Below, piece by piece: positions 5,626 through 60,795 of a stretch of DNA of 64,000 nucleotides. The stretch comes from a virus. Lineage: Duplodnaviria > Caudoviricetes. Positions within the stretch are counted from its first letter, which is position 1, and every line of letters begins with the position of its first letter. A program made the translations under genes and the position numbers. The DNA lies in IMG/VR virus record IMGVR_UViG_3300028048_000052, positions 111,155-175,154 of that record; one strand, written 5' to 3'. The notes beneath the pieces are model-generated. The model ran no database searches. It saw only the letters and a program-made list of their open reading frames with translations, and was not told the origin of the DNA.

Positions 5626-5626
5626 T

Positions 5627-27700: not shown

Positions 27701-27831
27701 ATATCCAACAGTTAAGAAGGGTTACAGGGTACTTAACTGGTAATTATACAACGGCATTTAATCTTGGAAAACAAGCCGAGGTTCATGATAGAGTAAAACA
27801 CTCAGAGCAACTCTCAGATTGGAGACGATAA
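24799..27831 (+). CDS. nrdD: Anaerobic (class III) ribonucleotide reductase with ATP cone, two exons (24799-26031 + 26848-27831, 738 aa)
   Basis: VIKRDG ATP cone; IYIHDLD; splicing restores the catalytic TMG|CRT; PAENL, YFTNS, RRVTGYL glycyl-radical motif. Confidence 0.92.
26032..26847 (+). mobile_element. Group I intron in nrdD
   Basis: Exon ends ...GGU and intron ends ...ACG; P7 elements CAGACTA (~26730) and GAAGATATAGTCG (~26806); removal restores the frame. Confidence 0.88.
26163..26723 (+). CDS. Intron-encoded GIY-YIG homing endonuclease (3 TGA=Trp, first at codon 2)
   Basis: GGAG RBS; M-TGA-VYKITNIQNNKVYIGQT, RAIRKYG, EQY-TGA-IKYYNS, GYN. Confidence 0.8.
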
Positions 27832-28370
27832 TGAGAATTGCGGGGTTAATGAAAAATGATATGGTTGATGGGCAAGGCTTCTGCGTTTCTTTATGGATGC
27901 AGGGATGTCCCCACCATTGTAAAGGTTGCCAAAATCCCGAAACGTGGGATTTTAATGGCGGTACTGAAATTGGACTTATCCCCCTTTGAGATGAAATAGA
28001 CAATGCGCTTAACGCTAACAACGTTAAGCGCAATTTCTCTATTTTAGGGGGTGAGCCACTGTGCCCAGAGAATATATTAAATACAAACCCAATTGGTTTG
28101 TATGTAAAAAATAATTATCCAGATAGAAAAATATTTTTATGGACTGGATATACAATTGAAGAAATAATAAAAATGGGAGAACCATATAACCATTGTTTTG
28201 TATGGGCCGATGTAATTATAGATGGTAAATATATAGAAGAACAAAGAGATATAACTTTAAAATTAAGGGGAAGTAAAAATCAAAGAATTATAACAATAGA
28301 CCATTATGAAAATGGGCAGAATGTTTTAATGAATAAAGGAGATATAATTTATGTTTATGATCCTAACTAA
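27831..28370 (+). CDS. nrdG: Anaerobic RNR activating radical-SAM enzyme (179 aa; one TGA at 27987)
   Basis: TAATG coupling to nrdD; GCPHHCKGCQNPETW, ILGGEPL, DGKY, LRGSKNQR. Continuous only with TGA readthrough. Confidence 0.88.
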
Positions 28371-30742: not shown

Positions 30743-31345
30743 ATGAATATTAATGCAGATGCAATGTTATCATATATTTTGGTTGCTGTTGGGGGATTTT
30801 TAATTAAATATCTTTGAGATAAAATGGTTGAAAATGGCAAAGAAAAATCAGAAAAAGCTGAAGCGTATGATAAAAAAGTTTTAAGAGAGGTTGTAGAAGA
30901 CATTGTAAAAGAGTCTTGTATGCAATTTAAAGGCGGATTAGAAGAATCAATTAATGAATTTAAAGCTCATGCCGAAAATGAATTTAAAAGATATAGCGAA
31001 ATGTATTGGAAAGCTGTTGGTAATTTAGAAGATGTTGAAAAGAACTTCAAACATTTAAGAGAACAAGATTTAGCATTTTATAAATACCAATTAATTAATA
31101 GCTGTAAAAAATATATTTCACAAGGTTTTATTACACAATATCAATTTGATAGATTAAGTGAATTACATAAGATTTATCATGATTTAGGCGGTAATAGCCA
31201 AGGTGATATGTATTATGAAAAAGCAACTCAATTAAAAATTATTAGCGATAATTCTTATAAAGCAATTGATCAAATGGATGATGAATTATATGTTACGGAG
31301 GCCGATATGAAAGACCTGCACGTAAAAAAAGAGGAAGAACAATAA
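30743..31345 (+). CDS. Holin-like/lysis-associated membrane protein (200 aa; TGA at codon 25)
   Basis: GGGGAGG RBS + ATG 30743; N-terminal TM segment ending YL-TGA-DK; C-terminal IYHDLGGNS motif resembling holin-adjacent phage proteins. Confidence 0.55.
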
Positions 31346-31363
31346 AGTTCTTCCTCTTTTTTT
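31325..31363. terminator. Bidirectional terminator at the strand switch
   Basis: A run-GAGGAAGAAC-AATAAA-GTTCTTCCTC-T run. Confidence 0.75.
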
Positions 31364-31409
31364 ATTTATCTGGACCTTCTACATAGGCAGCCAGTTAGCC
31401 TCATGTTTA

Positions 31410-31715
31410 TGGCAGGGGGCGAAGGACTCGAACCCTCATAGCCGAGGTTGGAGCTCGGTTCGCGGTTTTGCGTACCACTGCAATTTTCATTGCCCTTGCG
31501 GTTTGTGGTCTGGACTATATCTTCACCATATATCTCTACTTAGGTGGCTGATTATCTAGTCTCTACGGGCCAAATTACTCTGTTCCCTCGGTGTTACCAG
31601 TTAAGGATTCACCGATATCATCAGCTCCACTATTACTGTTTCCAGTAATAGGCTCCAATTGAGTAAAATTACTCTTTTTAAAGACCGATTCCGTTCCCAA
31701 CGGTGAAAACCCCCT
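31410..31715 (-). tRNA. Intron-containing UGA-decoding tRNA (anticodon UCA, probably Trp); exons 31715-31681 and 31470-31410; 96 nt mature
   Basis: Acceptor AGGGGGU/GCCCCCU, discriminator G, encoded CCA. T arm GAGGG-UUCGAGU-CCUUC. Anticodon arm CGGU-CUU|CAAA-ACCG. Variable-arm stem CCGAG/CUCGG. Confidence 0.85.
31471..31680 (-). mobile_element. 210-nt ORF-less group I intron between anticodon positions 34 and 35
   Basis: Follows U and ends in G; P7 elements GAGACUAG and GAAGAUAUAGUCC; internal guide UUGGAG pairs with the ligated CUU|CAA with U.G at the splice site. Confidence 0.85.
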
Positions 31716-31717
31716 AT

Positions 31718-31906
31718 TTATTCTCCTAATGCATCTTCATCAGTAACTAACATCCATTTATTACGAAATAAAATCGTTTTATATGGATATAAAGTTTCTG
31801 TTTCTTTTATATAAATATATAATTTTATTTCTTCTGGAAATTCTTGCCCAAAAAGCCAAGTTTCTACTTTCTGGAATTGTTCCATGTTATCAACAGTTAA
31901 TATCAT
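31718..31906 (-). CDS. Hypothetical 62-aa protein directly upstream of the tRNA
   Basis: AAGGA RBS; stop codon lies 2 nt from the tRNA 5' end; Trp codons are TGG. Confidence 0.6.
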   Translation of the reverse strand: MILTVDNMEQFQKVETWLFGQEFPEEIKLYIYIKETETLYPYKTILFRNKWMLVTDEDALGE

Positions 31907-33445: not shown

Positions 33446-35347
33446 TTATAAAGCAAATTTAATGACGTTAGAAGGCTTTGAATCCTCAGTATTTTCTACT
33501 TTATTAATAGCTTTGAAATAGAAATAACCATCATCATCTGGCACATAAACATCTGAATTTGCTCCTTCAATTAACAAGTCGTCGCTGGCTTCTGCCGGAT
33601 TTGGGTCCTGCTCATCAACAACTTTATACCATTGAATTTGTAATTCATCGCTTAAACCATTAATAACAATATTTGCTTTAATCTTATTTTCTCTTGCGAC
33701 AGAACCATCTTCAGCATCTAAAGGTTGGTTATCAGCTGTTAATAATGTCGCATTAACTTCATCAACTTTTGCTGGCTTAACAACTCTACAAATAACACTA
33801 GAAAGTGTATCTTCATGGTCACCATTTAATTTATTAATAATAGTAATCTTATAATATCCTTCTTCTGCTTTATGCATATCAATGCTAATTGTATTCTCAT
33901 TAACATCAAAGCTAATAGGTGGCTCATATCCTTCAACTGCTTCAACAGCAGGAACTTTAATATCGCCCTCAACAAAAGCAGGCTCTTCTCCAGCAGCAGT
34001 AGCTCTTTCAAGTTCAGCGGCTGCTTCTTCAGCAGTATAAAGAACTGCCTCTTGTGCTTCAACACCTTCAACAGGAACTAAGTCAACAGCTACAAATTCA
34101 GCTGAATCTAAATCTAAATCCTTTTCAGCGCTACTGGTCTTTTCAATTATTAAATCAATATCACCAACAATAGCATCATTAATCTTTTGTCTATTTACAA
34201 CAATAACAAGATTAGCGCCATCTTCAATAACCAATTTTTCTGCCATATCTTCAGTAATTTCAAGTTTAATTGGAGCAGGAATTTCACAAACCGTACTCTT
34301 TGAACTTGCAACAGAAGTATGATATTTAAATTTTACTGGTTCTTCGCTTACATTTTCGCCATCAAAAATGTACTCTTCATTATCAACAATTTCCTTCATG
34401 CCAAATACGACAACATAATATTGGCCAGAAGAGGTAACTGTCAATGCCGGAGAATATTCGCCATCAATCTGCGCGAAATCTGGGTCATTGGCACCTTTCT
34501 TGTACCACTTATAAGCCATTGCGTCATAAGAATCGCCCTCTGGCGCAGCCGCATTAACAGATAAAATTGCAGATGCTGGTGTGCCTTCTGGAGCGCCAGC
34601 CGGAACTTCTAAATCAATAACGTATGCAGGTAAGTCACCATCTTCTGCAAAAACAGGGCAATAAGCAATTTGTCCGCCCATTAATCTGCTAGCGATTTTA
34701 TCTGCAACATTTTCAAATTCAACATTTTCATCAGTTAAATCAAAGTCTAAACTTGCTTTGACAGCAACAGCGGCAGCCTGAGTAGCAAAGCTATACGCAA
34801 TCTTGCCACCTTCATCATATTGCATAATACGAACTGCAAATCTAATATTACCGGCTTTTGCTGTTAAATGATCGGCGGTTAATGCCCAACCAAAATAAAT
34901 ATATTCTGGGTCTGTATCAGCGTCAATAGCGTAAGCCCAAGAAGCGCCCTTAGCGCCATCTGGTGCTTCCCATTGAATTAAGATATGTAAATTACCATCT
35001 TTTAATTCTTCACCGACAACACCAGCTGCCTTACCGAAATCCTTAATATCAAAGTAACGGTTAATTCTGAACCAAACTGTTTCTGCTAATTCATCACTAA
35101 CAACGCCAACGCCATTTTTACTGAAAGAAGATGGAATTTTAATAGTTCTTTCATTCGCATCAATTAAAAAGATTTCTTCGTCTTCATGGCCTTCTTCATA
35201 TAAAGGTAAGCGTACATACTTAGGACTAATAGCTTTTAATTGCGCGAGACTATTTAAATATTGATCAATATCTAAACTTTCTACGCCTAAATCGGCCGCA
35301 GCCAATTCAAAAAGTTTAGCTTCCTTACTATTTACATAAGTAATCAC
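33446..35347 (-). CDS. BppU-like baseplate/tail protein with Ig-like domains (no TGA)
   Basis: DELAETVWFRINRYFD N-domain; YKWYK...GQYYVVV and IQWYK...GYFYFKA Ig-like motifs. Confidence 0.6.
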   Translation of the reverse strand: MITYVNSKEAKLFELAAADLGVESLDIDQYLNSLAQLKAISPKYVRLPLYEEGHEDEEIFLIDANERTIKIPSSFSKNGVGVVSDELAETVWFRINRYFDIKDFGKAAGVVGEELKDGNLHILIQWEAPDGAKGASWAYAIDADTDPEYIYFGWALTADHLTAKAGNIRFAVRIMQYDEGGKIAYSFATQAAAVAVKASLDFDLTDENVEFENVADKIASRLMGGQIAYCPVFAEDGDLPAYVIDLEVPAGAPEGTPASAILSVNAAAPEGDSYDAMAYKWYKKGANDPDFAQIDGEYSPALTVTSSGQYYVVVFGMKEIVDNEEYIFDGENVSEEPVKFKYHTSVASSKSTVCEIPAPIKLEITEDMAEKLVIEDGANLVIVVNRQKINDAIVGDIDLIIEKTSSAEKDLDLDSAEFVAVDLVPVEGVEAQEAVLYTAEEAAAELERATAAGEEPAFVEGDIKVPAVEAVEGYEPPISFDVNENTISIDMHKAEEGYYKITIINKLNGDHEDTLSSVICRVVKPAKVDEVNATLLTADNQPLDAEDGSVARENKIKANIVINGLSDELQIQWYKVVDEQDPNPAEASDDLLIEGANSDVYVPDDDGYFYFKAINKVENTEDSKPSNVIKFAL

Positions 35348-35447
35348 TCTTATTTCCTCCCTTTTTCATTAATATAGGTTGGTTAGAGAGCTTTCGCTCT
35401 CTAACCGTATTTTTTATCTATTATATTTTAGTTTTTCAAGGTGCTAA

Positions 35448-35663
35448 TTAGATGGATTTGCCCTTGACTTCCTTCCACTTAGATGCTTCTTCTTCGTCAG
35501 CGACTCTAACGGAATTAACAAAGGTTTTATTATCTTTTGTTAAGACTTTTCCTTCATCAGCAACTAAACTAATGGTTTTTACTGAATAAATTCCTTCAAG
35601 ATGGACAGGAGAATCAATAACTCCATTAGTTCCTAAATAACGATACATTATAGTTTGTCTCAT
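35448..35663 (-). CDS. Small tail-associated hypothetical protein
   Basis: AGGAGG RBS; LVADEGKVLT...WKEV. Confidence 0.6.
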   Translation of the reverse strand: MRQTIMYRYLGTNGVIDSPVHLEGIYSVKTISLVADEGKVLTKDNKTFVNSVRVADEEEASKWKEVKGKSI

Positions 35664-35681
35664 TTTGTTTTTAATCCTCCT

Positions 35682-38600
35682 TTATGGTTCACACCAAGTT
35701 ATTTGGTTATCCCCAACTATTTCTATAAATCTTGCTCATGGAGCATCTTCTTTGCCCTTATTTGTATAAATTATATAAGAATAAGGAACAGACGTTGTAC
35801 GGAATGGATTACCGCTACCATCTGGCAAAGTGGCTAAATTACTAGGATCATTAATATCACCAATTTGGAATGTTGTAATTGCGGTAGCACCACCAACAGT
35901 GTCATTATAGCTAAAGCTATTTGTGCCCAAGGCTTTTACACAACCCGGAATTATAAAGGTTGTATTAGTTGTAGGCTTTAAAGCGTGGTTAAATGCATTA
36001 GCGTCAATTGATATTAAATGAATACATTGAGCCAACGATCTATTTTCCAAACTTTCACATCTTCTAAATGCATTTTCTCTAATAACAGAAAGAGATGCCG
36101 GGAATTCTACATAAGCAAGGCTTGTGCAGTTTGCTAAACAATATTTGTCATAAACCTCAGGAACAGCTCCAGTTTCCCAGAAGATATGAGTAATTTCTGT
36201 ATTGTGGGAGAATCCGTTTAATGATTCATTTGAAGAGCTTATTGATAATCCACCAACTTTTACTCCACCAACTGTCTTCGGTAAAGTGACTTTTCCTCTT
36301 ACGCTATAACCTTCTTTTAATTTGATATAAACGCAAGGTTCACCTAAAGAGTAAGCGCCTCTAACATCATTGGTATAAGTATAGTCTTCTGTTTCAAAGA
36401 ATTCTTCGCTTATTGGATTATTGTGAACATCGCCAATTTCAAAAATTGGATAGTATGATAAATTAGAAGTAACTTTCTTTTGAGCGATATTTGCAAGATC
36501 TCCGTCTGGAGTTGTGGACCAGCCTCGTAAGATATAAGTATCTTCTAATGGTAAACTAAGGTCATTCTTATAAGGAGTTCTCTTTGGCGTTGGCACATAT
36601 TGTCCATAAGGTACGAGGACAGTAACTTGTTCTTGCTGATTAAGGCCAGTAATCAAATAAACAGGATTATTAGCATCTTCAACAAGTAAATTTCCATCAC
36701 CATCATAGAACTTAATACCAAATTTTTGTAATTCAAAAATTGCGTATAAAGTAATGACACTATTTGTTTCGCTAAATTTACATTCATCAGTAGAAAGGGC
36801 TTGACCATCTGTAAATGTTTGGGTAAGAAGATCATAATTCCAAACCATCTTATTTCCTTCTGGATCTAATGCCCATCCTTTAAATGTATAATTAGTTTTT
36901 GAAGGGATCTTTGTTGTTCTCGTCGGATTTTGATTTTCATACTGACTTGGCGCAAAACGAATTACATCAATTTCGTTTTCTTTACCACTATCAATAATTT
37001 GTACATACTTAGCAATGTATGATTCACTAATATTTTCAGCTCTAATTATTAAATTAGGCCAGTATTTACCGTATTTATTAGTTAATTCATCTTCTGCAAT
37101 AGCAGTACCATCTGCGTTAGCAACAAATAAGCTACCGGTAATTGTTGGAACAGTAGCCCTACTTGCCATTGAATCATTGTTATTTGTAAATTGATTAATA
37201 GCACCTCTACTAAGGCCATCTTCATAATCATCAATAAATTTATCTAATAATTCAAGACTTGTAATTGTTGATTTCGGTGCGCTTTCATCAAAGGTATAAA
37301 CTCTACCATTTAAGGTATCGTTTTCCCAAGTTGTTCTTGTGTATGGTTCATAAGTGCTATGGTCAGTTACATAATAGTAATTAACTCCGTCTTGTTTTGT
37401 TTCACCATACTCAACTTGCGTATATGGAGACCAATCAATTTCATCCATTCTGATCTTCAAACGACCACCAGCATTTTCTTTGATTTCAACGGCATTTCTT
37501 AATATTGTATAAGAATCATAACCAAGAGCATCGCCTTCAAATTCAATTATACCCAAATCACTAGCTACGATAGGAGCACCACTGACATAATCGGTTAATC
37601 CTTCGACATATAAACCAGCATATTCTGATTCTGGTCTATAAACTAATTTATTATCAACCACATCGGCAACAACTGGTGCAGTTTTTAAAATTCTTGTTAA
37701 ATTCTTATTTTGAATAAATTTTAATATTGTAACAGTTGATGGTAAATGTACAATTGTTAATGGAGCACCATCAGCAAATAACGCATATTTTAATTTAGTA
37801 TCTAATGCTCTAAATTCACGCAACTTCTTTGGATTTGTTATATCAAGGAATGTATCAAAGTTACGTAAGTGCGTTAAATTAATTTTTTGTAATAATGGTT
37901 TTTCATTGCTATTTGCACCAGTACCTAAGTCAAAGTTAGCAACCTTTAATTTATTGTTGTAATAATTAGGAGCATCACTACCAAGTGTAATATCTAATAA
38001 CTTAGCGCCTTGCGGCCAAGCAACTTCGGTAGCATACTTTGTACTTAAGTCACCGAAACTTGAAATATAATCAGCACCAGAGAAGTAGTTTAACTGCTCA
38101 TCAACGGTGCCGGACTTAAAGCTCTCTAAAACACCAGTAGAAACGATTGTATCCATTCCATCTGGGTATTTAATTGCGCTATAAGCTTCAGAGTTAGCAA
38201 ATGTATTTTCATCTGTAAACCAAGTAATATAGAAGTTCAAGTATGGAGTAATCTTATATACCGGATTTGCATCATAGAATGGTACTGGATAAGTTGCTTG
38301 AATTTGATTTTCAGCGTGATTAACGTTATCCAAGTATTTATCTGAGGTATTGGCAGGGTCATTACCAGAAACACGGAATGCAACCGCATTCATTGTTTGT
38401 TGGACTGTAAATGAGCCACTATGCCATTTTGAATCCATGTATAACAGACGGTTATTGATTAATAATTCTCTTGAAAGAATTCTATCACCTTGGCAAGCAT
38501 ATAAGTAATTAGCTGTACCATAAGTACCATCTTGCATCTTCCATTTTTCAGTAACAGGTAATACGTATTTATAATATTCATCTAATCCAATAGCAACGAT

Positions 38601-41600
38601 TGGTCTAACACCTCTCATAGCATATGAATTTGTGAATACATCTGGATTAAATGTATAAGCACCTTCAATTGTATTGTAAGTGATTTTTGTATTTCTTAAT
38701 GCTTTATAAGTAGCAATAATTTCACTTTGGAACATATCATAGAAATTAGTCCATAAAACACTATCGCCAGTTGAGAATGTCTTATTTTCAGTTGAATCTT
38801 CATCATAATCCCATAATAAAGCACCAACGTTATTTAAACCTAACTGAGTATCAATATCATAGAAAATTGGATACCAAATGTAATCTCCACCTTGCTCATG
38901 TGGACCGAACGATGCAATCATCATATTTTTACCACGTGAGTCGTAGCAGAGTAATAATTCAGTCATGATGAAGTAAATAGTGCAGTAATGCCTATCTAAG
39001 TGCTTATTAAATTCATTTCTGAATTTTTGTCTTCTATATTCAACGGTATCATTGTGGAATGTACCGAATAATTTTTCTGAACCGCCAACCATTTCTGTCG
39101 TATAAGTAACAGTTGGATCATCAGAACGAGCAGTAACGCTCATCTTAATTGGCGTATCAAATACGAAATCTGGGCGAGCATGGGTTGTATCTGTGCTGTC
39201 TAACCAGTCAAATAAAACTTTAAGGTTGGCCATCTTTCTATTCATATAAGCACAAATATCTGCGTTAGATGTACCACCAATAACTTCAGACCAGTCATCG
39301 CCACCATCATCAATTGTTTTATAGCTCTGCGCAGTTTTGAATGCGTCTGCTTCGGCGTTATATCTTGCTTCAAAGTGTTGAGCGACTTCAATCTTTGGAT
39401 TTTCATTCGTTGAGTCAGCGGTTGGAGTCATAAAGCCTAATTCTCTCGCCGCGTCGTTTGGATAACGGAATGAACACCAAGTACCTTGGTTATCTCTTAA
39501 TTCCCAGCATTCTGAAATATCAGCTACTGTTTCGCCATTCATGTATGGCTGTTCATAATCTTCTTTAAAGCCATAATATTCATTAGAACCCTTGTCTAAG
39601 TTCCAATTATAACGGCCAATATAGGTAATAGAACCATCAGCACGTTTGTGGAAACACAAGTATGGGAAACCATAAACAGAAGTTCTATAATTCTTTTGAG
39701 AAGCATCAAAGCCGATATCGTCCAATGGGTGTTTATTGTAAATACCACTACCCATTAAATTAGCAAAACCAGAGTTATATGAGCCAGAAGATTCCATATA
39801 GTCAATCTTCCAAGTAAATACGTTTGTTGCTAAATCGACATTATCCATATGCCAATTTTTAGCTAATTTATTACCATCAGCGAGGGTAAAATCTTTATAT
39901 TTAATTTTGCCATCTGGTTGTTCTTGCGGAACACCCATAACTGATTGACCAGCCAATTCACCTTTTGTATAATTCCAATTTTTAGCTTTTTTGAACTTAG
40001 TTTTGAAATTACGTCTTGGGTATTTCTGTGAAGAAGTACCTTGAACATTGATATCTACATTGTCAGCCGTAAAGCTTGGGCAATGAGTATAATACTCATA
40101 ATCACTAATTAAGCCATCTTCTAATAATTTATCAGCAGTTGGGTTAACAAATGTAATTGAAACTTTTTTATTACCGCCTTTAAAGTGAGGTAATTCATCA
40201 TCATTCGGTGTGCCAGAAGAGTCAATCAATACATAAGGCATTGTTAAGTTATCTGGGTGGTCAATGTTATGTTGAACCAATTTAGCATATGATAATTTTG
40301 TTGCGTCATTAACATCTGTTAACTGGTTTTCATCATATAAATTAATATCTTTAATATCTGCGAGATAGTTATGAATAACTTCTGGCATTGTTAAAGCGAT
40401 TGTGTAAATTCTAAATTTGTATAAATCAAAATCACAATAATTGGAATTAATCTTAAATGGAATATTTTCCATCGTGATCGCAGCGATACCAGTTAAATTA
40501 ACTGCGCCAGATAAGATACCATTTAAGTAAATTGATAATGTGTCTTTTGCTTTATCAACAACAAAAGTAATATTGATAATTTCGCCTTCTTTATATCTAA
40601 CATTAACTGTTTTACCAGCAGTGTTAAAGTAAGCTTCTTGAGTACCAATACAGAAACCTTCATTGTTGGAATTTAAATATTTAAATACAACATTGTTTTC
40701 AGTTTCAACAATTTTACGAGTTGTATTAGACTCTTCCATTTCCATGTTACCATCGCTATCAAGTTTTACTTCATAACCATTTTGTCTAATCCAATCAATT
40801 GTTTGTTCTTCACCAATATTGTTTAATGTACCGGCAATTGCTCTACCATTTGCGTCCCTTTCGGTAACAGAAGTCCAATATTTATATAATGGAATTTCAG
40901 TAACCAACGTAGCATATTTTTGAGCATTTTTAATTCTAAAACGAATTTCAAAAGTATACTGGGTTGAACCGGTATTCATTGTAATTGTCTTATATGGAAT
41001 TTGAACACTCGCGCCATTCGCAATAGACAAATATGAACCTAAGCCATCTTTATCATCTTTCCAACCGTTATTATACCAATTGAAATTATTAAGAACAGCA
41101 GAGTAATCTTTTACTTTTGATTTCCAAATGCCTCTAGTCGCAGCGATTTCTGTGCTAGAACGACCCATAGAATCAAAGTTAATATCTAATGCAGACTGGT
41201 TGACTAAAGACAAGTCTCTCGAACCTTCTGTCGTTACAGAGAAATTAATTCTTTTGCTTGTTGCGCCAGAACTAATCATAAATTCATTTTCACCAACGTC
41301 ATACAAGGTCGTAACATCCCAGTATAACCAACCATCCGCAGAATATCTAACCAATTCTGAACTAACCTGACTTCCATTTTTATAAAAATCAACGGTTGTA
41401 GGAGCGCCATTTCTTTCATTTACGGAGTCATAGACCATATAAGGAATAATAGCAGATTCATATTGAATTACTACTGGAGTAATATCACCAACCCAAATTA
41501 AAGGTGTATCTTCTTCATCATCAGCCCAAGAGGCTTCAAAAGAAATTGGGTCAGATGATAATGTTACTCTATTAACATCTGCGCTTAACCATAAATCAAT

Positions 41601-42569
41601 GGTATGTTGACCATGAGATTGTCGAGGAATAGCCACGGTTTGCGCATTTTCCATATTATCATCAATTAATTTGACATTGTTATCAAACTCTTCTCCGTCA
41701 ACTGCTGTATGAAGTTTTACATTTAAGCCTTTGCCATAAGGAATATAACGGAGTTGTAAATCTCCACTTTGAACAGCAATATAATTTGTACCAGATTGCT
41801 TATCAATATGCATGTCTACAACTTTAATATTTCTTTTCCTTGTGGAAGGTAAAACGGCCATACCGGCGTTATCAGAATCGACACTTACTGTCATTGTAAT
41901 ATTTGAATTAATAGGTAAGAAATTTAAATTTAATTTATAAGGTTCACCAGAACGAATACCACTTTGAGTAAAAGCTTCTGAATAACCATCGTTTCCTGTA
42001 AATTCAAAGTTTAAAGAAACATATCTATCGGTATTTCCATTAATTGCTTCACCAGTTACGGAAACATAATAATTTTGTCCTTGTACTAATGTAGCATTTG
42101 AATCAAGCGTTGATGAATCAATGGTAACTTTTAATGTCGGTTCAACGATGCCTCCACCGCCTCCTCCGCCACCACCAGAACCACTGATGGCCATACGAGT
42201 ACAGAAGTAATTTCCTTCTGCGTTAACCTTTACAAAGCGATAAAAAGCTCCATCTGTGCCAATAATTAAATCATCAACTTTAATTTCAGCTTCGCCTGTA
42301 TCAACGTAAGCCGAATCAAGTACATAATAATTAGTACCATCATCGTCATCCATCGTACCAATCGGCATTTCTTCGCTTGTTGGTTGTGAGCTATAAAATA
42401 AGGAAGCTCCCGCGCTTGAACTACCAACTTTAACTCTTTCGTCTTTTGTATCTAAAAAGATTTCTCCAGAGTCCGTCGAAAAATAAATAAATCCCGGCGA
42501 TATATTGGTTTGATCAATTTTTTGCCTTGTACCATACGCAGGTTTAAAAGCTATTTTCTGTTCGCTCAT
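35682..42569 (-). CDS. Giant tail fibre/adhesin (2295 aa): LamG-like, CotH-kinase-like, InlB B-repeat-like and BspA-type LRR regions; one TGA near the C-terminus
   Basis: QGTSSQKYPRRNF, YNWNLDK, YDIDTQLG (CotH-like); YTFKGW, YILRGW; IRENAF/IDANAF LRRs. Readthrough of TGA 35736 ends at TAA 35682, adjacent to the next RBS. Confidence 0.7.
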
Positions 42570-42590
42570 TATTATCTCCTTTCCTCTATC

Positions 42591-42640
42591 AAAAAAAAGA
42601 GGAAGAAAGTTTATAAAAAAGCTTTCTTCCTCAAAGTTTT
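42591..42640 (-). terminator. Probable intrinsic terminator
   Basis: GAGGAAGAAAG...CTTTCTTCCTC inverted repeat with a flanking A run on +. Confidence 0.55.
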
Positions 42641-42703
42641 TATTATTTCTTTCTAATACATATTAAAAAGATAAAAGATTGATTAATAGGGTTTGCCCGT
42701 TAA

Positions 42704-44251
42704 TTAAAATTGACCCCAAACGATATCAATTGTTGTGGTATCGCCAGAACCAGAAATTGCAATGCTACCAGTAGAAGCTAACTTCAAACTGATCGTGCCT
42801 AAATCTCCATCATTGGTATGAGTAATTGTAGCAACATTGTTTGCAACAGATGAAGTTGTCGTCCAAGCACCAGCATCAAGCTGTGTATCAACAACAGTAA
42901 CTGTCTTAGTAGCAACAGCAGTAACATGCCCTTGTGCATTAGTGGTAACACCAGTAACAACATCAAAGACTAAGTTAGTACTAGGAGACTGAGTTTCAGC
43001 ACCCTTTGTTGGATCAGTACGAGTAACATTAGCATGCTTAACTTCAATACTATTACCATTAGTTGATGTAGTATCTGTTAATTCAATACTCGTTCCAGCA
43101 GTAAGAGCGATCTGTGCAACAGGATCATCATCACTATTGTTAATTACAATACCATGAGTAGTTGCGCTTCCAGCATAAGTGGTATCAGTATCATTGCCCT
43201 TAACTACATCAAAAGTTGCACTAGCAGAAGGAATTACACCATCTGTTTCAGTGCCCTGAACAATGACTAAATAACCCGGCTTAACTGCTTTTCCACCAAT
43301 TGTGAATTCTTGATCAGCTAACCATACATCACCATTGTGAAGTGTAGAACCAGTGATCGTAGCAGCGGAAGAAGCAACGCCTCTATAAGTCATTGCATTG
43401 ATTGTCTTTTCAAGATTATCAATAGCATTAGTTAATTCAGCACTTGTCGGTACACTTAAAGTAGCAACGCCATTTACAAAATGAACTGTCTGATTTGCGC
43501 TATTACCATAGACAATAGTTGGATCTAATGTTACTGGGAAGTCAGTTCCACCACCAGTGCTAATTTCCCATTTAAAGCCAGTAGCTTCGTTTGAAGCAGT
43601 AAAATCATCAATACCACTAACGCCATCTTCCTTAACTTGGAACTTAATGCTACCATCTGCTTCACGAGAAACGTTAATACTAGTACTATCAACTAATTTA
43701 ACAAAGCTATCGCCACTAGCAAGAGCAGTACCATTCTGAGAAGGTGTTAAATTAATTCTAACATCATTATTATCCGCAGCTGTACTAACAGCATAAGTTG
43801 TATCAGGAGCAACGCCAATAGTTAACTCGCCATTTGCGCCCTGACCAATCGTTACATTGTTTGTCGCAGCGGCGACAGTGAAACTACCATTGACCTCATT
43901 ACCATGAGTATCTTCTGCATGGAAAGAAACTACACCATTATTTACAGATAAAGCATCATTTGCAGCTTCTAATTGAGTATCAACATTTGTTTGTAACCAA
44001 GTAGTACCATTGCTCCAAGCTAAAATATTGCCATCTGTTACATAATAGAATTCGCCCTGATGTTGAGCAGCGGCTGGTAATACACTTACGCTTGTAACAG
44101 TTGTAATACCTTCGGCAATTGGTAATAACTCGTTGCCATTACCCAAGAATAAACGCTTGCTATCGGTTGTGATATATAACGCACCATCTTGAATACTACT
44201 ACCAGAAGGTAAATTAGCTTGTAAGCCACGTAAAAACTTTACATTTGCCAT
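42704..44251 (-). CDS. Tail fibre-like protein (no TGA)
   Basis: N-terminal VKFLRG..ANLP...GALYITTD..RLFLG fibre-attachment motif; Thr/Ala/Gly-rich; ends IVWGQF. Confidence 0.6.
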   Translation of the reverse strand: MANVKFLRGLQANLPSGSSIQDGALYITTDSKRLFLGNGNELLPIAEGITTVTSVSVLPAAAQHQGEFYYVTDGNILAWSNGTTWLQTNVDTQLEAANDALSVNNGVVSFHAEDTHGNEVNGSFTVAAATNNVTIGQGANGELTIGVAPDTTYAVSTAADNNDVRINLTPSQNGTALASGDSFVKLVDSTSINVSREADGSIKFQVKEDGVSGIDDFTASNEATGFKWEISTGGGTDFPVTLDPTIVYGNSANQTVHFVNGVATLSVPTSAELTNAIDNLEKTINAMTYRGVASSAATITGSTLHNGDVWLADQEFTIGGKAVKPGYLVIVQGTETDGVIPSASATFDVVKGNDTDTTYAGSATTHGIVINNSDDDPVAQIALTAGTSIELTDTTSTNGNSIEVKHANVTRTDPTKGAETQSPSTNLVFDVVTGVTTNAQGHVTAVATKTVTVVDTQLDAGAWTTTSSVANNVATITHTNDGDLGTISLKLASTGSIAISGSGDTTTIDIVWGQF

Positions 44252-44276
44252 ATATTATTTTTTCCTCCGTTATTTA

Positions 44277-45155: not shown

Positions 45156-48100
45156 TTATTGCCATGCATTGAGTAATTCTCAATAATTACGGTCTATATT
45201 ATCGGTAAAACTTCCTGTTTTTACGCCATTCTTTGTTTTGATATAAATGTAATTCTTTTCTGGTTGTGGAGCAACATAATTTGACTCACCTTGAGTTCCA
45301 GATTCTGCGACTGCGTCTGAATGACATACCCAAATCCATCCAGATTTTACATCAGGAACAGACATTTCATTACTACCTAAACCTGTTGTTAAATTCGTAG
45401 GGATATGGTCTGGATCAGAACGAATAATACCGCAATAGTTATTAATAATACCGCTTTCATTACCACTGCCTTCAATAGTCTGATTATTAATATTATTAAT
45501 CTGCGCTTGAAGTTTATTCAAACCTTGCCCTAAAGTATCTGTCGCCGCGATTGGCGTATTAGATCCTCTATTGCTAGGACTATCTAAATCAGTTAATGGT
45601 CTATTGGCGATATGATCTAATTGCCATTGCAATTTAGCAATTGCTTCGGTAAGATTATCGTTGTCATCAACGTTATCGCCCATCGATTCATTAATGTCAT
45701 TAATATAATAATTATCATAATCATTTAACGTTATGTTGTTAGCACCGGCGTTAATATGAGTAATTAATTTATTAAATGCATCACGCACAGTATCAGCAGA
45801 AGTAATTGAAACATTTCCAGAAGGAGAAGTTAAAGTACCAATTGTTGCACTACCATTTGTTTCTAATAAAATATCAGCAACTTTAACAGTGGTTTCTTTT
45901 TCTCCAATCACGTGTCCTGCGTTATCAATAACAGGGCTATGAAGAACTATCCTATTGCCAGTAGCATCATCTGGGACAAAACCAAATGGATCATGGGCTC
46001 TATCATTATTGGCTTCATCAGCCTCTAATGTATCTTTTAAAGCATCTACGTAACCACTTAATTCATCATTACGATCTGCGTCTTCGCTTAATGGCAAATG
46101 GGTTGAATTTTCTCCATCAAAATCATTAACATTGTCATGCACAATATCTAATATCATTTGACCAGTTTCTTCATCAAAACTAGGAGTAAGACTAACTCAA
46201 GATTCGCCATTATCATTTTCAGAATTTAAAGCGACTGGCCCAAGTTTACCATATTCATTAACTCCATATAATTGGCCCGGAATTAATGGTTGTTCAAATC
46301 CATCAATAATATCGTGCAATTGGTTAAGGCAACCCTGAACGGTATTATTATCACGAGTTCTTGTATTACCAGATTGCAAAACCTCATTTATTCTTAATAA
46401 TAAGCCATGTAAAGTATTAATATTTCTAGCAAAATCATTTAATTCTTTAAAGACTTTTGAATCTTGTTTAATGCCAATCTTTAATTTTGGATTTTCTCCG
46501 CCAAAATATTTTTCGATATCAGAATCTTCTAAAATAATTTGTGTATTTAACTTTTGATATTTTGTAAAATCATCTTCTACTGATTCATCAACATCTATAA
46601 TATAATACTCATTACCAGCGACATATAAATTCATTGGCAATTGCCCAGTAGAGAAATCAGGCCTATCAGCTGGCATATACTTATTACCATCTTTGTAATA
46701 AAGAGTAAATTCTGTATAATATCCATTTTTTCCTGCGGTGATATACTCATTATCTACATCAAAGTTACTCGTTAATCCGAAGCCTACAAAACTTTCATCT
46801 TCAAGTTTTCCTCAATTTGGTTGATCTTTAATTTGCCAATAAGTATATTCTTCACTAACTCCATTGAAATCTAAATCTTCTTCTCTTAAAGAAACTCTAT
46901 TAAATGAAATAATTGGATTATTTTGTTCATCTATAGTACTTAAATTAAATTCTTCACTTACATCTTCACCAGCCTCAATTGCCAATGCCCTTGCTTTTAA
47001 TGGATCGTCTTCAGGGTGCCTAAAGTCAGCATAATAACATCCAGTAGTTGGTAAAGTTACCTTTTTCTTTGTGGCTGTTGCATAATGACTCTCACTTGGA
47101 TCATGATTATAATATAACGGCCAGCCTAATTCTATTTTTCCTTCAGTACCATAATCTTTGTAATAACTTCTATTATTAAATAATATCCTATTTAAATCAA
47201 TATGGCCAAATTCAGAAGTAACGGTTTCTCCTTCTGGGGATAGCTCTGGTGCGTGTTCATAATAATAGTGGACTTGAATTGGCTCGTTTAAATTAATTTC
47301 TGAGCTATTGGTTGCATTTCGCAATGCTTCCTTAAATTCATCAGCACTCTTTATATCACCGTTGCTATATTTTACTCATAGATTATCTGTACCAATTTTA
47401 ACTTCTGATAATTTTATATAGTTATTTCTATTAGGATCTGCGTTTTTATCTGCTTTAAGGACATACCAACGTTCATTGTCTAACATGTATCCACTAACTT
47501 CATGGAAATCTAATAACTCATACCATTTATCTGCTATTTGAGCCCCTTGTTTTCATTGATTTATTAAATATTCTCCATTATGTGCTTCATAAAAATGCTT
47601 TGGTGCACTTGGTTCTTGCGCGTCAGTGTAACCAGTAGGAATTTCTGTTTTTTCTAAATAATAAATTTCATTTTTATTAATTTTACTAGCACTTCCGACG
47701 TATTTTAATGTACTTGGTAATGTGTAGTATTTCCAACCTTCAGAAGCAATACCACTTCCATTAACACGTTTATAAATATTGCCGTTAATTTCATTACTAT
47801 AAACATTGTCTGGCATCTTATTTGCCATAACTTCAAAGTAATTATCATTACCGGTCTCATAATTTTCTTTAAATTGTTCAGCTGTTAAAGTTTCAAGCTC
47901 AGTATAAGGTATTTCTTTAAAGCCAACACTTTTTGAAACATAGTAGTAATGACCTTGCTGAATATTTTTATCTGCTGGTTCGCCGTCTTCATTTAAAGCG
48001 TTATAATCTTTTGTTGCATAATAAATTTGCCAAGTATGCGCTTTTTGAGGATCGGCATAATCATCAGTAGTTGGAATATCCTCGTTTGTAATAATCATAC

Positions 48101-49709
48101 CCATTAAATCATGAGCACTATTAATTGTTCCAACTAAAGAATCGCCCTCTTCTGGAACGTATTCTGTATAGTCATCTTCTCTTGTATAATGTACTAAGTG
48201 CTGTTTTTCATTATGAGCTGTTAAAATATCATTTGCATCTTCCCACGCATGAAGAGTTTTTCTTTTATTGGTTTGCTTATAAAGTCCAGATTTAAATTCT
48301 TCACCTTTATATTCAATATATTTTTCTTCATTTGGGTCAAGTTTTTCATAATAAGATTCATTCGCGTCAAAATCTTCTTCTAAAATCGGCTCATAACCAC
48401 TCACGCCATAAATTATATCCCACATTTCTGCGACAGTATCGCCAAGAGCAGGCAAAATAACGCTTAAACCTTTCATATCATCATAAGGTTTGTTTTCAAA
48501 GTTTGTTGTAGAATCTTCATCTTGATTTGCATATTTTGTGCCAGATTGATAATTGTCTATTTGAATAACGTTTTTGTCTTTGCCAACTCCAGAATAAACA
48601 CTATTATCTCTGCTGAAGCCTATTTTATTAAAATATATAGCTCCATTATAACTCTTTATAGTAGACTCATTTATTTTATGTTGTGTATCTAATTCAGTTC
48701 TTTTTAACTCTAATAAGCCAACATCTGTTTTTCCATCCAAATGAGGAATATCTTCTTTTAATTCATCAACATCTGCAATCATAAAACCCCAAGGAGTTTG
48801 CATATGTAAATTATAATAAACATTTGTACTATCTTTATCAAAATGCAATGTCCTTGGTACATCGCTTGGTGAATCAGAGGTTAATGCAAATGTTGGAACC
48901 ACTGAATTTAATTCAGCGATATTCACATATTTTGCTTTACCGTCATTACCATAAACTTTGCGCCAAACGGTTGAATCATAGCCTCTACCTAAGCCATAAA
49001 CAGCCTTATCAATAGCAAAGTTTGTTGTATAAGCATCTTCCGTTTCTACAACATTATCGCTATTCCAAGGAAGGCCAATTTCTTCGCCCTCTTTCCCATA
49101 TAAGAACCATCTATTTCTTAATGCATCAATATAATGATATGGTTTTGAATAAATATCATTTTCATTAGAAGATGAATAAATATCGCTTTCTTGAACATAA
49201 CAATAAACAGGTATTTCAGTAATTTCTTGGGTAATTTGATCTTTTGTATAAAGAACTATTCCTTCTTCATTTTCTCAATCAATGGTTTTTATTAAGTGAT
49301 CGCCATGCTCATCAGCTTCTTTGGCTCTATAAGCAATAGTAGGGGTCATTTCATAAATAACTTTTGAATAATTACCACTTTCCCAATTAACTTCTTCTTT
49401 TATATCATTAAATTCTTCGCTTAAATATAAATAATAACAAAGATCACTTAAATTATCTCCATCATCTTTCGTTTTATAAGCACTAAGAATTTCTGCTTTT
49501 GCATAGTATTTACCATTTTTATTATAAACAGTTTTAACCGCTTCGACAGGATTTTCATTTAATGGTTGATCATATTCAACTAAAACATATCTACCACCAA
49601 AAACGCTATCAGTATTAGCGTTTTGTTCCATTATAGTTCTATTAGAATAAATTCTATCAAACTTAAAAGAATTACTTGTGGTATTCCTTATATTTCCATA
49701 GAAACCCAT
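45156..49709 (-). CDS. Large virion/tail protein (1517 aa; 6 TGA=Trp)
   Basis: Five track fragments share one frame with no TAA/TAG between them; TGA at 49275, 47553, 47376, 46812, 46197, 45180. Confidence 0.75.
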
Positions 49710-49712
49710 AAA

Positions 49713-50069
49713 TTACTCCTCCTCTCCTTCATACACTATATCAACAATCAAAAATCCATTACCAGCTTCGCCAGCCTCTTCAATTGTTTTCATAGATTTG
49801 GCGTCAAAACGCAAAGCACTAATTGATGCCTTATCTTGTAAATCTAATTCATAAATACCAGTAGCGCCAACAATTATAGGATCAATTCCTCCATTTAAGA
49901 AAAATTTTGTTCCCGGCAAAGCTTGAATACCTAATTGATAAATTGGCGTTTTATCTGCAAATAAACTACCAGTAAAAAAGGATTCAATTGTGGCACCTTC
50001 TGGGAAAACATTAGTGCTATTGGGGTCAACATTATTTTTAACTCATCTATATTGATAAGCCTTTCTCAT
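49713..50069 (-). CDS. Hypothetical virion protein (118 aa; TGA at codon 9)
   Basis: AGGAGG RBS; MRKAYQYR-W-VK...QLGIQALPGTKF. Confidence 0.65.
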
Positions 50070-50083
50070 TCTCCATTTCCTCC

Positions 50084-53000
50084 TTAATATATTATTTCAG
50101 CGCTCTTAACCGCAGAAACGGACATAATTCCATTAAATGTTAATGGAATTGTAATTCTGTTAACTAAATATTCTCCATTTATCTTACTATCTTCATCATA
50201 AACCATTACTTTTGTATTTGGCTGTAAATGATAAATAGGTATTGAATTAATTGAAATTGATTCAATACAATATAAATAAAGATTGATATATTCTTCCATA
50301 ACGTCATACGCGCTCTTGCCTTGCGAACTTATATTAAATACAGACGCTAATTCATCATTGTATTGCAAATAAGTATAGCCAGATTTTCTATCTACAGTTG
50401 AAATATCTGTGGTATATAAAGCCGTAGGCGTTTCTCTAAAGTATATGGCTTTAACCATATTATCATTAACAGATTTTGACCTATCTCCAATAGCAGGGAC
50501 TGAATATTTAACTAAATCTGTGCTTTCATCAGCTTCTAAAAAATCAAATCAGAAATTAAGATTTTCTGGCGCATTTAAAATTTCAACATTTCAACCATCA
50601 TTGGTATCTTGGTCTTCTATTCACGAATCAACCCATTTAAAAGTTTGTCAATCATCGTAACTCATATTTAATCCATAAACAATACCATTTGGATTACTAA
50701 AATATATTCCTTGCTCGCTATCTGGTTTTATCGCATCAGTAGTAAATACCCATCCACCGCTAGTATTTCTCTCTGTTCATACGCCAGAAGGATAAAGAAC
50801 TTCCATTAATTGCGGCGGACAATATAATTGACGCCAAAATCCTTCCATATCAACATAATATTGTTCATATCCTGTTCTACCAGAAGGATAATACCATTGA
50901 TTATTTAAATCAAGCCCATTATTTGTTCTTACTTTAAGATAAAAATCATCATCATGATTATGCTTTCTATAGTCAAGTGCCATTTGGAAAATAATTTCAC
51001 GCCAATCGCATACATATATTGTATTATCTTCACTTATTTTTCCATTTTCGCCCACTTTTGGCATTCTGTCAACAAATCGATATCCTTTTTCTGCAATTAA
51101 CGCATCGATTTCTTCATCGCTTAATTGTTTTTCTACTTCTTCTTCAATGTATTCTATAAAAGTTTCATCGTTTGTTTTAGTAGGGAAATTAGGAGAATAA
51201 AAATAAGCATAAGCTTCTACAACTTTTTTATTCCTATGTATTCTTTCTTCTTCTGGTTTATCCATAATAGAAAATCAATCTTCAAAATCTTCATAAGTAT
51301 GTATAGAACAACCGCTGAAAGGAGCAATATATCATCTAGTAATTCCATCATCATCTTGAATATTTTTATCTTCAGTGCCATTATGTTCAACAGAAACATA
51401 AAAACTTCCATCTTCATATTTATAAGCATTAAATAATCATATATTATTAGTTGATGTAGAATTCCTTATTATTTGGCCATTAAAAAATGTAGAAAAATCC
51501 AAATTCTCAACATAGCCTTTTGGCTGTGTTACATCTCCACTCGGATTTGTAGCATACATCCGCATATGATTTATAGGATCATTGCCGGTTAAATATTTAT
51601 AATAAGTATGTCAATCTCGCAAATCTCACCATCCAGCAGTTCATGAGCCATCTTTATTTTTTGTTGGTTTTTGGAGGCCATCAATCACTTTATGAGTTGG
51701 TTCAAAATTTTCTATATTTCTCTTTATTCTTTTACGAATTTTTTCACGAGCCTCGTCTTTAACCATTTCAACTAATTGATCATAGGTAACATCAACAATA
51801 CCTTCGTCCTTTTTAACTCACCATTGTCCGGTTTTAGTTACCCACTCTTTTCCATCGAATGCTTTGTAATAAGTTGGTTTTTTATCCACAGCATATCTCA
51901 AGTGAACTGGGAGTTCAGACCCGGTGACAGATGCTTTTGTCCCTCATATTGAAAAATCATTTCTTACATTACTTAAAGCTGGGTTATTAGCGTAACTTGT
52001 TACTAAAAAACTATCACCAAAAGTCCATGTAATTGGGGATGAATAAAACGCGCTTTCTACATAAGTTTCATCAATTGTTGTTACATAAGAATTTTGATTC
52101 CCTGTTTTTATATTATTTCAAGTTTTATCAATAAAAGTTGGTTTTCTTTGGAAAATAAATCTTCCATCAATATCGTAAAAATATTCAAAGTTGCCTAACA
52201 TGGCTACTAATTTATCTAACATTGCCGTAATAGGTTCTCCAACAGAAAGAATTAAGTCTCCGGGATATGTAATATCTGTTAAACGGTAACCACATGTTTG
52301 GCCATTTTCAACTTTTACAACAGTATAAATATAATTATAATTTATTATACTTTCTTTGTTTTCATCAATATCTGATAAGAAAAATTTAGTAGCAGTAATT
52401 GAGTGCACTCCACCCAGATCCAATTCTATTCTTGGGTCATAATTTAACACATTGCCATCTTCGTCTTTATAATTAGCAATTTCACTAATTGAAATACCAT
52501 GAGTATTATCAACAGGTTCGCCATCAATTGTTTGAATATTTGCTAAAATATATTGGCCATCTTTTAATTTTGCTGGATAAACTTTCTGCTCTCCATTAAA
52601 AAAACTTTGATAACAATCTTTTGTATTATCTTCTGCATTTAGTCTAAAGAGTAAATACATTGGATCATTGCCGTTGTAATCAAGTAATTCTATTCCATAA
52701 TCATCTAAATCATTAACAACAATATTTTCTCAAGGTTCATCAGCATAAGCATGCACTGCTTCTCTGATAATATTCTTAATAGGAATATAGCTAATTGTGG
52801 TTATACCGTTTTGATAATATTCTTCTTTACCAAAATCAACAGACGCAAATAAAGACCCACTTAATTCACCATTAAGTAAAGTCATTTTGTCTTTACCGGT
52901 TATATTAATTGTATAACTGCTCACAGCCTGAGAAGTCGTAAAAGCAGATATCACATAAGTTCCCATAGGAAACCAAATAATATCTTCATAGCCATACCCA

Positions 53001-56516: not shown

Positions 56517-56519
56517 AAT

Positions 56520-56708: not shown

Positions 56709-56742
56709 AGTATGACCTCCTTTTTCTCTATATATTATTATA

Positions 56743-60793: not shown

Positions 60794-60795
60794 AT

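Follow-up and report, generated by a model that had tools for sequence, protein, structure and literature searches.

Can a phage keep a change of genetic code locked behind a self-splicing RNA? The question is raised by a 64,000-nucleotide stretch of DNA, here called the window, that comprises bases 111155-175154 of the IMG/VR virus record IMGVR_UViG_3300028048_000052 (Caudoviricetes), a genome of 175,154 bp that is rated complete and has a G+C content of 32%. The minus strand of the window carries a transfer RNA (tRNA) gene with the anticodon UCA, tRNA(UCA), that is interrupted within the anticodon by a group I intron. An original prediction, made from the sequence without database searches, had proposed that splicing of this gene gates a switch from code 11 to code 4, in which TGA is read as Trp. 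We examined the locus, its relatives, and the genes that would depend on it, and conclude that the gene is most probably the sole UGA-decoding gene of the phage, a Trp-derived opal suppressor, split by a passenger intron that lacks an open reading frame (ORF) and is not a timer of the code.

A tRNA gene split within its anticodon

On recomputation, the two tRNA halves and the 210-nt group I intron fell on the minus strand at exactly the coordinates originally predicted. The whole split gene spans 306 nt, and the tRNA obtained by splicing in silico has 96 nt. The parts of the gene are as follows.

31715-31681, minus strand: 5' exon of tRNA(UCA), 35 nt (sequence reading, computed coordinates, and intron-less orthologues)
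31703-31691, minus strand: D arm CCGUU-GGG-AACGG, unusual, part of the 5' exon
31680-31471, minus strand: group I intron, 210 nt, without ORF (Rfam RF00028 match, alignment, and RNAalifold covariation)
31658-31650, minus strand: internal guide UUGGAGCCU of the intron (Rfam alignment and sequence reading)
31470-31410, minus strand: 3' exon of tRNA(UCA), 61 nt (sequence reading and computed coordinates)
31458-31442, minus strand: variable-arm hairpin CCGAG-CUCCAAC-CUCGG, with the same 7-nt loop as the anticodon arm of the tRNA-Trp(CCA) that the phage encodes
31437-31421, minus strand: T arm GAGGG-UUCGAGU-CCUUC, part of the 3' exon

The 5' exon starts with AGGGGGU and ends with CGGUCUU; it supplies the acceptor strand AGGGGGU, the D arm, the anticodon-stem strand CGGU, and C32, U33, and U34, the last being base 31681. 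The 3' exon begins with CAAAACCG, includes GGUUCGAGUCC, and ends with GCCA, the CCA being encoded at 31412-31410. It supplies C35, A36, A37, and A38, the anticodon-stem strand ACCG, the variable and T arms, the acceptor strand GCCCCCU, and the discriminator G73. Joined together, the exons have the features of a cloverleaf: the acceptor stem has 7 bp, the T loop contains GUUCGA, the anticodon loop is 7 nt long and includes U33, and the 3' end is CCA. Among orthologues, compensatory changes are found in the stems of the acceptor, the D and anticodon arms, and the variable arm.

The expectation that standard tRNA scans would pass over this gene was borne out. ARAGORN did not find the split gene in either its default or its intron mode, and Rfam, when run at gathering scores, gave no match anywhere in the window.

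The splice junction in intron-less orthologues

Orthologous genes that lack the intron read ...GGTCTTCAAAACC... across the predicted junction. One of these, L176 from IMG/VR, is identical to the in-silico spliced gene at 86 of 96 positions and carries GGTCTTCAAAACCG uninterrupted; its compensatory changes include acceptor pair 6-67, which is A-U instead of G-C, and substitutions on both sides of two pairs in the variable arm. Three syntenic sister contigs, L214, L215, and L216, were found via NrdG, which is 82-93% identical. Their gene order is that of the window (dUTPase, RuvC, a 200-aa ORF, and then a small ORF on the other strand), and the uninterrupted tRNA gene lies there in a gap of 150 nt, as compared to 306 nt in the window. 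The sisters show further compensatory changes, at pair 28-42 of the anticodon stem and within both the D stem and the variable arm.

A metagenome scan using the 3' end of the tRNA added nine more uninterrupted orthologous genes, none with an intron. One of them, L233, shares a single 70,349-nt contig with L176, and the 13 orthologous genes therefore lie on 12 different contigs. A search of related phages for the same arrangement thus recovered the same tRNA in the same place in the sisters, but the intron in 0 of the 13 genes. An exact 25-nt search with the tRNA 3' end in IMG/VR returned nothing, and blastn against deposited phage genomes returned short core matches only.

All 13 genes agree with the junction CUU|CAA and the anticodon UCA that had been read from the window. 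Because they are uninterrupted at this point, the spliced anticodon loop is predicted to be C-U-U-C-A-A-A, of 7 nt, and we regard the predicted junction as established by this comparison. Together with the group I match described below, the orthologues also confirm that the intron is placed between positions 34 and 35 of a tRNA(UCA).

Anatomy of the group I intron

A sensitive Rfam scan of 31350-31780 yielded a full-length match to Intron_gpI (RF00028), covering model positions 1-253, with 28.1 bits and an E value of 2.4e-5 that refers to this 431-nt search; the score is below the curated cut-off. To examine the fold by comparison, related introns were gathered from IMG/VR by pattern and 12 were aligned, 8 from tRNA(UCA) and 4 from tRNA-Leu(UAA) genes, the latter including one from the same genome. 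Across these 12 introns 56 alignment columns are invariant, and RNAalifold recovered P2, P3, P4, P5, P6, P9, and an extension of P9; compensatory change was seen at 25 of the 36 pairs. P8 was excluded from the pairs scored, and P7 is invariant in the alignment, so that covariation speaks neither for nor against it. The following elements of the intron were recognized.

31661-31674, minus strand: small hairpin GAGUAAUUUUACUC in the P1 loop, the site of an endonuclease ORF in relatives
31630-31651, minus strand: P2 hairpin of 9 bp with a GAAA loop, 7 of 7 aligned pairs covarying among the 12 introns
31557-31566, minus strand: GUAGAGACUA, J6/7 and the 5' strand of P7, the guanosine-binding helix (unchanged in all 12 introns; aligned to the Rfam core)
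31512-31523, minus strand: AAGAUAUAGUCC, J8/7 and the 3' strand of P7 (nearly invariant in the 12 introns; aligned to the Rfam core)
31480-31493, minus strand: P9 extension hairpin GCAAU-GAAA-AUUGC within P9 (CCAC/GUGG), with covarying pairs

The alignment of the internal guide to the splice site had been proposed at the outset, and the Rfam alignment likewise shows a P1 with U34 in a wobble. The guide bases G, A, and G pair with exon bases C32, U33, and U34, with U34 opposite G as a U-G wobble, and the first intron bases UAA pair with the UUG of the guide. The same UUG is also able to pair with the CAA of the 3' exon, forming P10. The terminal omega G at 31471 lies outside the Rfam match and was read from the sequence; its column is invariant in 12 of 12 introns.

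The intron is classed as a small, tRNA-type, IC3-like group I intron. Introns of the small tRNA type are fast constitutive self-splicers, and we infer that the present one self-splices and does so constitutively.

The intron as a probable mobile passenger

By core identity, the nearest relatives of the intron are those of L137 (82%), L136 (79%), and L012 (75%), in which the tRNA(UCA) bodies are quite different. Relatives in L010, L011/L013, L136, and L137 carry an ORF of 130-150 aa in the P1-loop site, whose ribosome-binding site and ATG follow immediately on the 5' splice site. The encoded protein belongs to the Pfam family PDDEXK_5 (E 8.9e-13) and matches PDB 2OST (E 5e-4), the endonuclease of the Synechocystis tRNA-fMet intron, known as I-Ssp6803I. 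A PD-(D/E)XK homing endonuclease is thus encoded by the nearest relatives (79-82% core identity), which is the signature of a mobile element. The window intron has no homing endonuclease ORF, and its P1 loop measures only 22 nt.

The site is polymorphic for the intron, being occupied in the window and empty in L214-L216 and 10 other orthologous genes. The comparison indicates a lineage of homing introns that target the anticodon loop of tRNA(UCA) genes, of which the window copy would be an ORF-less member. It may be a degenerate one, whose endonuclease gene was lost or never present. Such an intron would have been acquired in the lineage of this phage and tolerated since it splices well, rather than having been built for timing a code change; the alternative to its gain here is repeated precise loss among the sisters.

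TGA codons and dependence on the spliced tRNA

That TGA stands for Trp in this phage, as originally claimed, was supported by three GIY-YIG genes of the window in which TGA aligns with a Trp of I-TevI, at the xW-K-xH and E-x-x-W-I motifs. A fourth GIY-YIG TGA, beside the start codon, aligns with the Gly of the GIY motif and is ambiguous. The principal clients of a UGA-reading tRNA are found in one block of the window.

45156-63999, minus strand: tail and tape-measure block of five long frames, with 37 in-frame TGA versus 52 TGG

The adjoining minus-strand genes at 33446-44254 contain 0 in-frame TGA codons, and the tRNA gene itself lies within a TGA-free block beside the TGA-rich late block. 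The description of the TGA codons as confined to nucleases and late genes was roughly right, but the NrdG, RuvC, and RecJ-like genes also carry one or two each. The NrdG gene (27792-28370 of the window, plus strand) was dropped as evidence for the meaning of TGA: relatives 91-93% identical have Trp at the TGA site, which is not independent evidence because the database translations themselves used TGA as Trp (proteins P0003-P0009 of close relatives), and distant relatives have Leu. For RuvC, no relative in the PDB was found by sequence with which its TGA site could be assessed.

A second, intron-less tRNA(UCA) gene was looked for throughout the 175-kb record using ARAGORN, the Rfam tRNA and tRNA-Sec models, and a search for the anticodon-loop shape, and none was found. 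The genome has 12 other tRNA genes, a transfer-messenger RNA (tmRNA) gene, and a tRNA-Trp(CCA) gene. No gene for a tryptophanyl-tRNA synthetase (TrpRS) or a release factor was found in the genome, and charging of the tRNA would therefore require the TrpRS of the host. Because no second, uninterrupted tRNA(UCA) was found in the genome, the phage very probably relies on the spliced tRNA, and on TrpRS from the host, to decode UGA. Such dependence on splicing does not amount to regulation.

The phage's own tRNA-Trp(CCA) gene (G000:C1:68094-68168, plus strand) has a U11-A24 pair. This is the state made by the Hirsh UGA-suppressor mutation in E. coli tRNA-Trp, and it is native to Bacillus tRNA-Trp. 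The phage tRNA-Trp(CCA) might accordingly read some UGA independently of the spliced tRNA.

Identity of the tRNA and the second anticodon-like arm

The bacterial tRNA-Trp identity set consists of G73, A1-U72, and the anticodon CCA. Both A1-U72 and G73 are present in the split gene, in every orthologue, and in the tRNA-Trp(CCA) of the phage itself. In its acceptor and T arms the split gene corresponds to ordinary tRNA-Trp(CCA) genes, 10 of which were caught by the 28-nt pattern used in the metagenome scan. The gene departs from tRNA-Trp in having the anticodon UCA instead of CCA and a variable arm that is a 5-bp hairpin and not a short loop. The shared features suggest that the tRNA carries Trp.

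The variable-arm hairpin places a copy of the tRNA-Trp anticodon loop beside the UCA arm. We scanned for uninterrupted GGTCTTCAAAACCG...GTTCRA, which gave 69 loci, and pooled these with the intron-bearing genes. The variable-arm loop contained UCCA in 30/30 distinct G73 tRNA(UCA) genes with a long arm, in forms such as CUCCAAA, GUCCAAA, and UUCCAAC, and the stems beneath it covary. None of the 14 Sec-like tRNA(UCA) genes from the same scan had a UCCA loop. Relatives with this arm are found in L139-L206, L011, L012, L136, L137, L214-L216, and L221-L237, with the loop pattern N-UCCA-A-A/C.

The likeliest explanation, although one that we hold tentatively and think somewhat less probable than not, is that the variable-arm loop serves as a substitute identity element: the UCA arm would decode UGA on the ribosome, and host TrpRS would still accept a tRNA whose real anticodon has lost C34. 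A plain alternative is that the hairpin is a relic of an anticodon-arm duplication. A corollary would be that only a gene with U34 can harbor the intron, since P1 requires its U to wobble with G. If the first explanation is true, a TrpRS identity element in the variable arm would be a new way to keep a suppressor chargeable, and relevant to genetic-code engineering. It is this second arm, conserved and resembling an anticodon arm, that makes up the more novel part of the locus.

Weighing the assignment and its alternatives

Several observations weigh against the reading of the locus as a functional, intron-split Trp suppressor. The RF00028 score of 28.1 falls short of the curated cut-off of 50. 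This reflects weakness of the Rfam model and not of the intron call, because 56 columns are invariant and 25 of 36 pairs are compensated; the tRNA-Leu(UAA) intron of the same genome likewise scores under the cut-off (45.4 bits), and none of the model's 12 seed sequences is bacterial, as stated in Williams 2020 (bioRxiv 10.1101/2020.01.27.920355). When given the spliced sequence, ARAGORN did call a 96-nt tRNA(tca), but only at a relaxed threshold, with a label of SeC that derives from the anticodon. The intron-less orthologues reached 40.1-40.2 bits on the tRNA-Sec model RF01852, for which the cut-off is 47. The minimum-free-energy fold of the spliced window tRNA is not the cloverleaf (-32.4 as compared to -31.4 kcal/mol for the cloverleaf), a difference of 1 kcal/mol that we treated as within the error of the method; the minimum-free-energy fold of L176 is a five-arm cloverleaf. 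Finally, the D arm, with its 5-bp stem and 3-nt loop, the long variable arm, and the anticodon stem of 4 bp with a pyrimidine-pyrimidine mismatch at 27-43 are not like those of tRNA-Trp, and charging with Trp is for this reason put forward only as probable.

Would a timer explain the locus better? The gating proposal holds that the ribozyme step is slow or conditional, owing to guanosine, Mg2+, or a phage factor, and so delays the tail and lysis genes. It draws support from the spliced product being the only UCA tRNA found in the genome, from the position of the gene in a TGA-free block beside the TGA-rich late block, and from the existence of a regulated group I ribozyme, that of Clostridioides difficile, which is controlled by c-di-GMP (PMC3984707). 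However, sisters that use TGA, in which NrdG translates only if TGA is read as Trp, have the gene without the intron. The recoding lifestyle has no need of the intron, because the sisters and nine metagenome contigs possess tRNA(UCA) uninterrupted. Relatives of the intron carry a homing endonuclease, and a like intron occupies the same 34/35 position of a sense tRNA, tRNA-Leu(UAA), where no code-switch logic applies. No riboswitch or other RNA family that might act as a sensor was detected in 31350-31780, even at E values up to 10; transcription timing alone could set a delay, and small group I introns of tRNA genes are fast, constitutive self-splicers. The splicing-gated switch from code 11 to code 4, as originally proposed, is thus the part of the prediction that finds no support and that we regard as improbable, although splicing might still introduce some kinetic delay. 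It is also very unlikely that the gene is dead, with an intron that no longer splices and UGA read by a host suppressor or by near-cognate tRNA-Trp(CCA). The scores under curated cut-offs and the tRNA-Trp(CCA) gene of the phage would fit with a dead gene, and tRNA-Trp in Bacillus reads UGA at a low level. Nonetheless, all invariant core positions are intact in the window copy, which is so by construction of the invariant set; the P1 wobble and the terminal G are likewise preserved, as are both exons, the stems are as in the orthologues, and 37 in-frame TGA codons in essential tail genes require efficient decoding.

The remaining alternatives concern the tRNA body. The long variable arm, G73, and the Sec-like D arm could be taken to mean that the tRNA carries serine or is of the selenocysteine type; SerRS recognizes long variable arms, tRNA-Sec is the best Rfam model for the orthologues at 40 bits, and ARAGORN applied the label SeC, albeit from the anticodon. 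We give this little credence, since the TGA codons of three GIY-YIG genes stand opposite a conserved Trp, A1-U72 is a mark of tRNA-Trp, ordinary tRNA-Trp(CCA) has the same acceptor and T arms, and the UCCA loop is absent from all 14 Sec-like genes of the same scan. The identity as tRNA-Sec was rejected in particular on the score under the cut-off and on the acceptor and T stems, which are 7/5 and not 8/5; the model's pairs 8 and 9 were flagged as non-canonical, and the D stem of 5 bp with a 3-nt loop is only a resemblance to the 6-bp stem and 4-nt loop of tRNA-Sec. The hairpin with the CCA loop might instead be the working anticodon arm of a UGG reader, with the UCA hairpin and its intron inserted between the D and anticodon arms. 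The loop does equal the tRNA-Trp anticodon loop, and the 3-5 nt that follow the hairpin have the length of a normal short variable loop. Yet the order of acceptor, D, anticodon, extra, and T arms is the standard layout of tRNAs with a long variable arm, a normal tRNA-Trp(CCA) is already present in the genome, and the phage would be left without a UGA decoder despite at least 37 in-frame TGA codons. No natural tRNA is known to us in which a further arm separates position 26 from the anticodon stem, and we consider this reading barely credible.

Proposed maturation of the suppressor

For a Trp-type suppressor split by a passenger intron, we propose the following route. The tRNA gene would be transcribed, probably along with a 62-aa ORF upstream of it, and the ribozyme would fold such that P1 sets U34 in the U-G wobble. 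Free guanosine would attack after U34, and the 3'-OH of U34 would then attack after the terminal G (31471), joining CUU to CAAA in the 7-nt loop CUUCAAA. RNase P would trim the 5' end, and the 3' trailer would be removed back to the encoded CCA. Host TrpRS would charge the tRNA, and Trp would be inserted at in-frame UGA codons, at least 37 of them in the tail genes and others in several nucleases.

Gene neighborhood and phage affiliation

With the replication genes on one side and the late block on the other, the tRNA gene belongs to a small unit that can be read in the standard code. The features flanking it are listed below.

31986-31969, minus strand: terminator-like hairpin, upstream of the ORF-tRNA pair
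31959-31930, minus strand: sigma-70-like promoter match, 3' of the terminator-like hairpin and upstream of the 62-aa ORF (weak evidence)
31718-31906, minus strand: 62-aa ORF without TGA and without a family match, its stop 2 nt before the tRNA
31331-31356, no strand assigned: 10-bp hairpin between A and T runs, 54 nt past the CCA, kept in the sister contigs

The 62-aa ORF and the tRNA are probably co-transcribed, because the same small ORF precedes the tRNA in sister contigs L214-L216. A separate small transcription unit may begin upstream of the pair, a suggestion only, as promoter matches in the scan were no commoner than in shuffled sequence. The hairpin at 31331-31356 is likely a two-way terminator between converging gene blocks. 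Between the CCA and this terminator lies the 3' trailer (31357-31409, minus strand, GAGGCUAACUGGCUGCCUAUGUAGAAGGUCC...), which is conserved in L214-L216 beyond the needs of a spacer and might act as a processing signal or give rise to a small RNA.

An assignment of the phage to the crAss-like Zeta group, considered on account of size, introns, and TGA recoding, was rejected, as its DnaE-type polymerase is closest, at ~40%, to the polymerases of phages that infect Enterococcus and of SPbeta-like phages of Bacillus. A Firmicute is the probable host, and Agate and Jade of Borges 2021 are examples of clades to which the phage might belong.

Other group I introns in phage tRNA genes

The tRNA-Leu(UAA) gene of the same genome (G000:C1:64519-64811, plus strand, equal to L004:1658-1950) has a 205-nt intron after U34 that scores 45.4 bits on RF00028. 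Because it is only 54% identical to the tRNA(UCA) intron, the two are not recent copies of one another. ARAGORN in intron mode mis-splits this gene and calls it Lys(UUU). Directly after it lies the tmRNA gene (G000:C1:64817-65162, plus strand; RF00023, 81.6 bits, above the cut-off), for which ARAGORN gave the tag peptide AKFIKNIIANIKSLFATPTMAYTFA, which is unusually long and does not have the usual ALAA end. A third RF00028 match is found at G000:C1:83767-83994 (plus strand; 40.6 bits, E 4.6e-10).

Other phage contigs have similar genes. Intron-split, Trp-like tRNA(UCA) genes with a short variable loop and the 3' exon CAACACC are found in L208 (G001:C1, ~5400-5830, plus strand) and at L045:760-965. 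The contig of L176 holds an intron-split, short-loop tRNA(UCA) ~1 kb from the uninterrupted long-arm tRNA(UCA), and hence two opal suppressor genes. In L111 (minus strand, core motif at ~2829 of the reverse strand), a long-arm phage tRNA is apparently intron-split, with the spliced loop CUCUAAA and the anticodon CUA; with exon ends read by eye, it is a possible intron-split amber suppressor. In L125, the intron enters a Leu(UAA) gene one base earlier (CU|UAAAA), and the 3' exon of this gene, UAAAAUCC, recurs in L099 and L110; in L017 an Ile(UAU) gene is split at 34/35. Group I introns thus seem to be common and unannotated in phage tRNA genes.

Comparison with known systems

Group I introns at position 34/35 of tRNA anticodon loops are classical, as in tRNA-Leu(UAA). 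The cyanobacterial and plastid intron of that gene ('Leu.3Ug', subgroup IC3), as presented in Williams 2020, shares with the window intron its site after U34, the U-1 wobble in P1, and the terminal G. The two are also alike in size (~200 nt), in having no ORF, and in the core motifs GUAGAGACUA and AAGAUAUAGUCC; identity of the window intron to phage tRNA-Leu(UAA) introns is 54-63%. They differ in the host gene, which in the window is a Trp-type phage opal suppressor and not a cellular sense tRNA, and in the 3' exon, which in the window starts with C35, so that P10 pairs CAA rather than AAA. The survey of bacterial and archaeal genomes in Williams 2020 raised the bacterial group I tRNA site classes to 21. 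The present locus adds phage suppressor tRNAs to the known hosts of the classical anticodon-loop group I introns.

The suppressor tRNA(UCA) genes described in recoded phages (Yutin 2021, PMC7886860; Borges 2021, 10.1101/2021.08.26.457843) resemble the window gene in that TGA stands for Trp mainly in late genes and in that the tRNA is encoded in a standard-code-readable stretch. Unlike these, the window gene is split by a ribozyme, because of which the tools of those surveys would miss it, and has an extra arm. Many recoded phage genomes were reported to lack a detectable suppressor, with non-canonical tRNAs suspected, and a suppressor was detected in 35% of code-4 genomes (PMC7886860; 10.1101/2021.08.26.457843). 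The locus gives one concrete reason for such missing suppressors, a ribozyme-split gene with a non-canonical body that is missed by ARAGORN and Rfam. Searches with exons or intron cores recover such split genes readily. A full-text literature search in a limited collection found no publication of a group-I-split suppressor tRNA or of a CCA-loop arm.

The Synechocystis tRNA-fMet intron, for which Bonocora and Shub 2001 is cited in PMC3984707, is linked to the window intron through relatives with 79-82% core identity, whose PDDEXK_5 ORF matches 2OST. The window copy differs in having no ORF, and its target is the UCA anticodon loop and not that of tRNA-fMet. To our knowledge, the allosteric ribozyme of C. 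difficile is the only natural case of group I splicing as a regulatory gate. There, a c-di-GMP aptamer is fused to the ribozyme (PMC3984707), whereas no aptamer was found beside the window ribozyme and the sisters do not have the intron. Despite the evidence against regulation, an essential decoding function placed behind a ribozyme step makes the locus a test bed for the coexistence of introns and their hosts.

In the tRNA-Trp(UCA) of Mycoplasma and mitochondria, which use code 4, and in the tRNA-Trp opal suppressors of E. coli, a tRNA-Trp body that has U34 serves to read UGA as Trp and is a substrate of TrpRS, as is also cited in Borges 2021. The window tRNA is like these in being a Trp-type tRNA with U34 that would read UGA as Trp. 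It is unlike them in that its D arm is remodeled and a hairpin with the wild-type CCA loop stands in the position of the variable arm.

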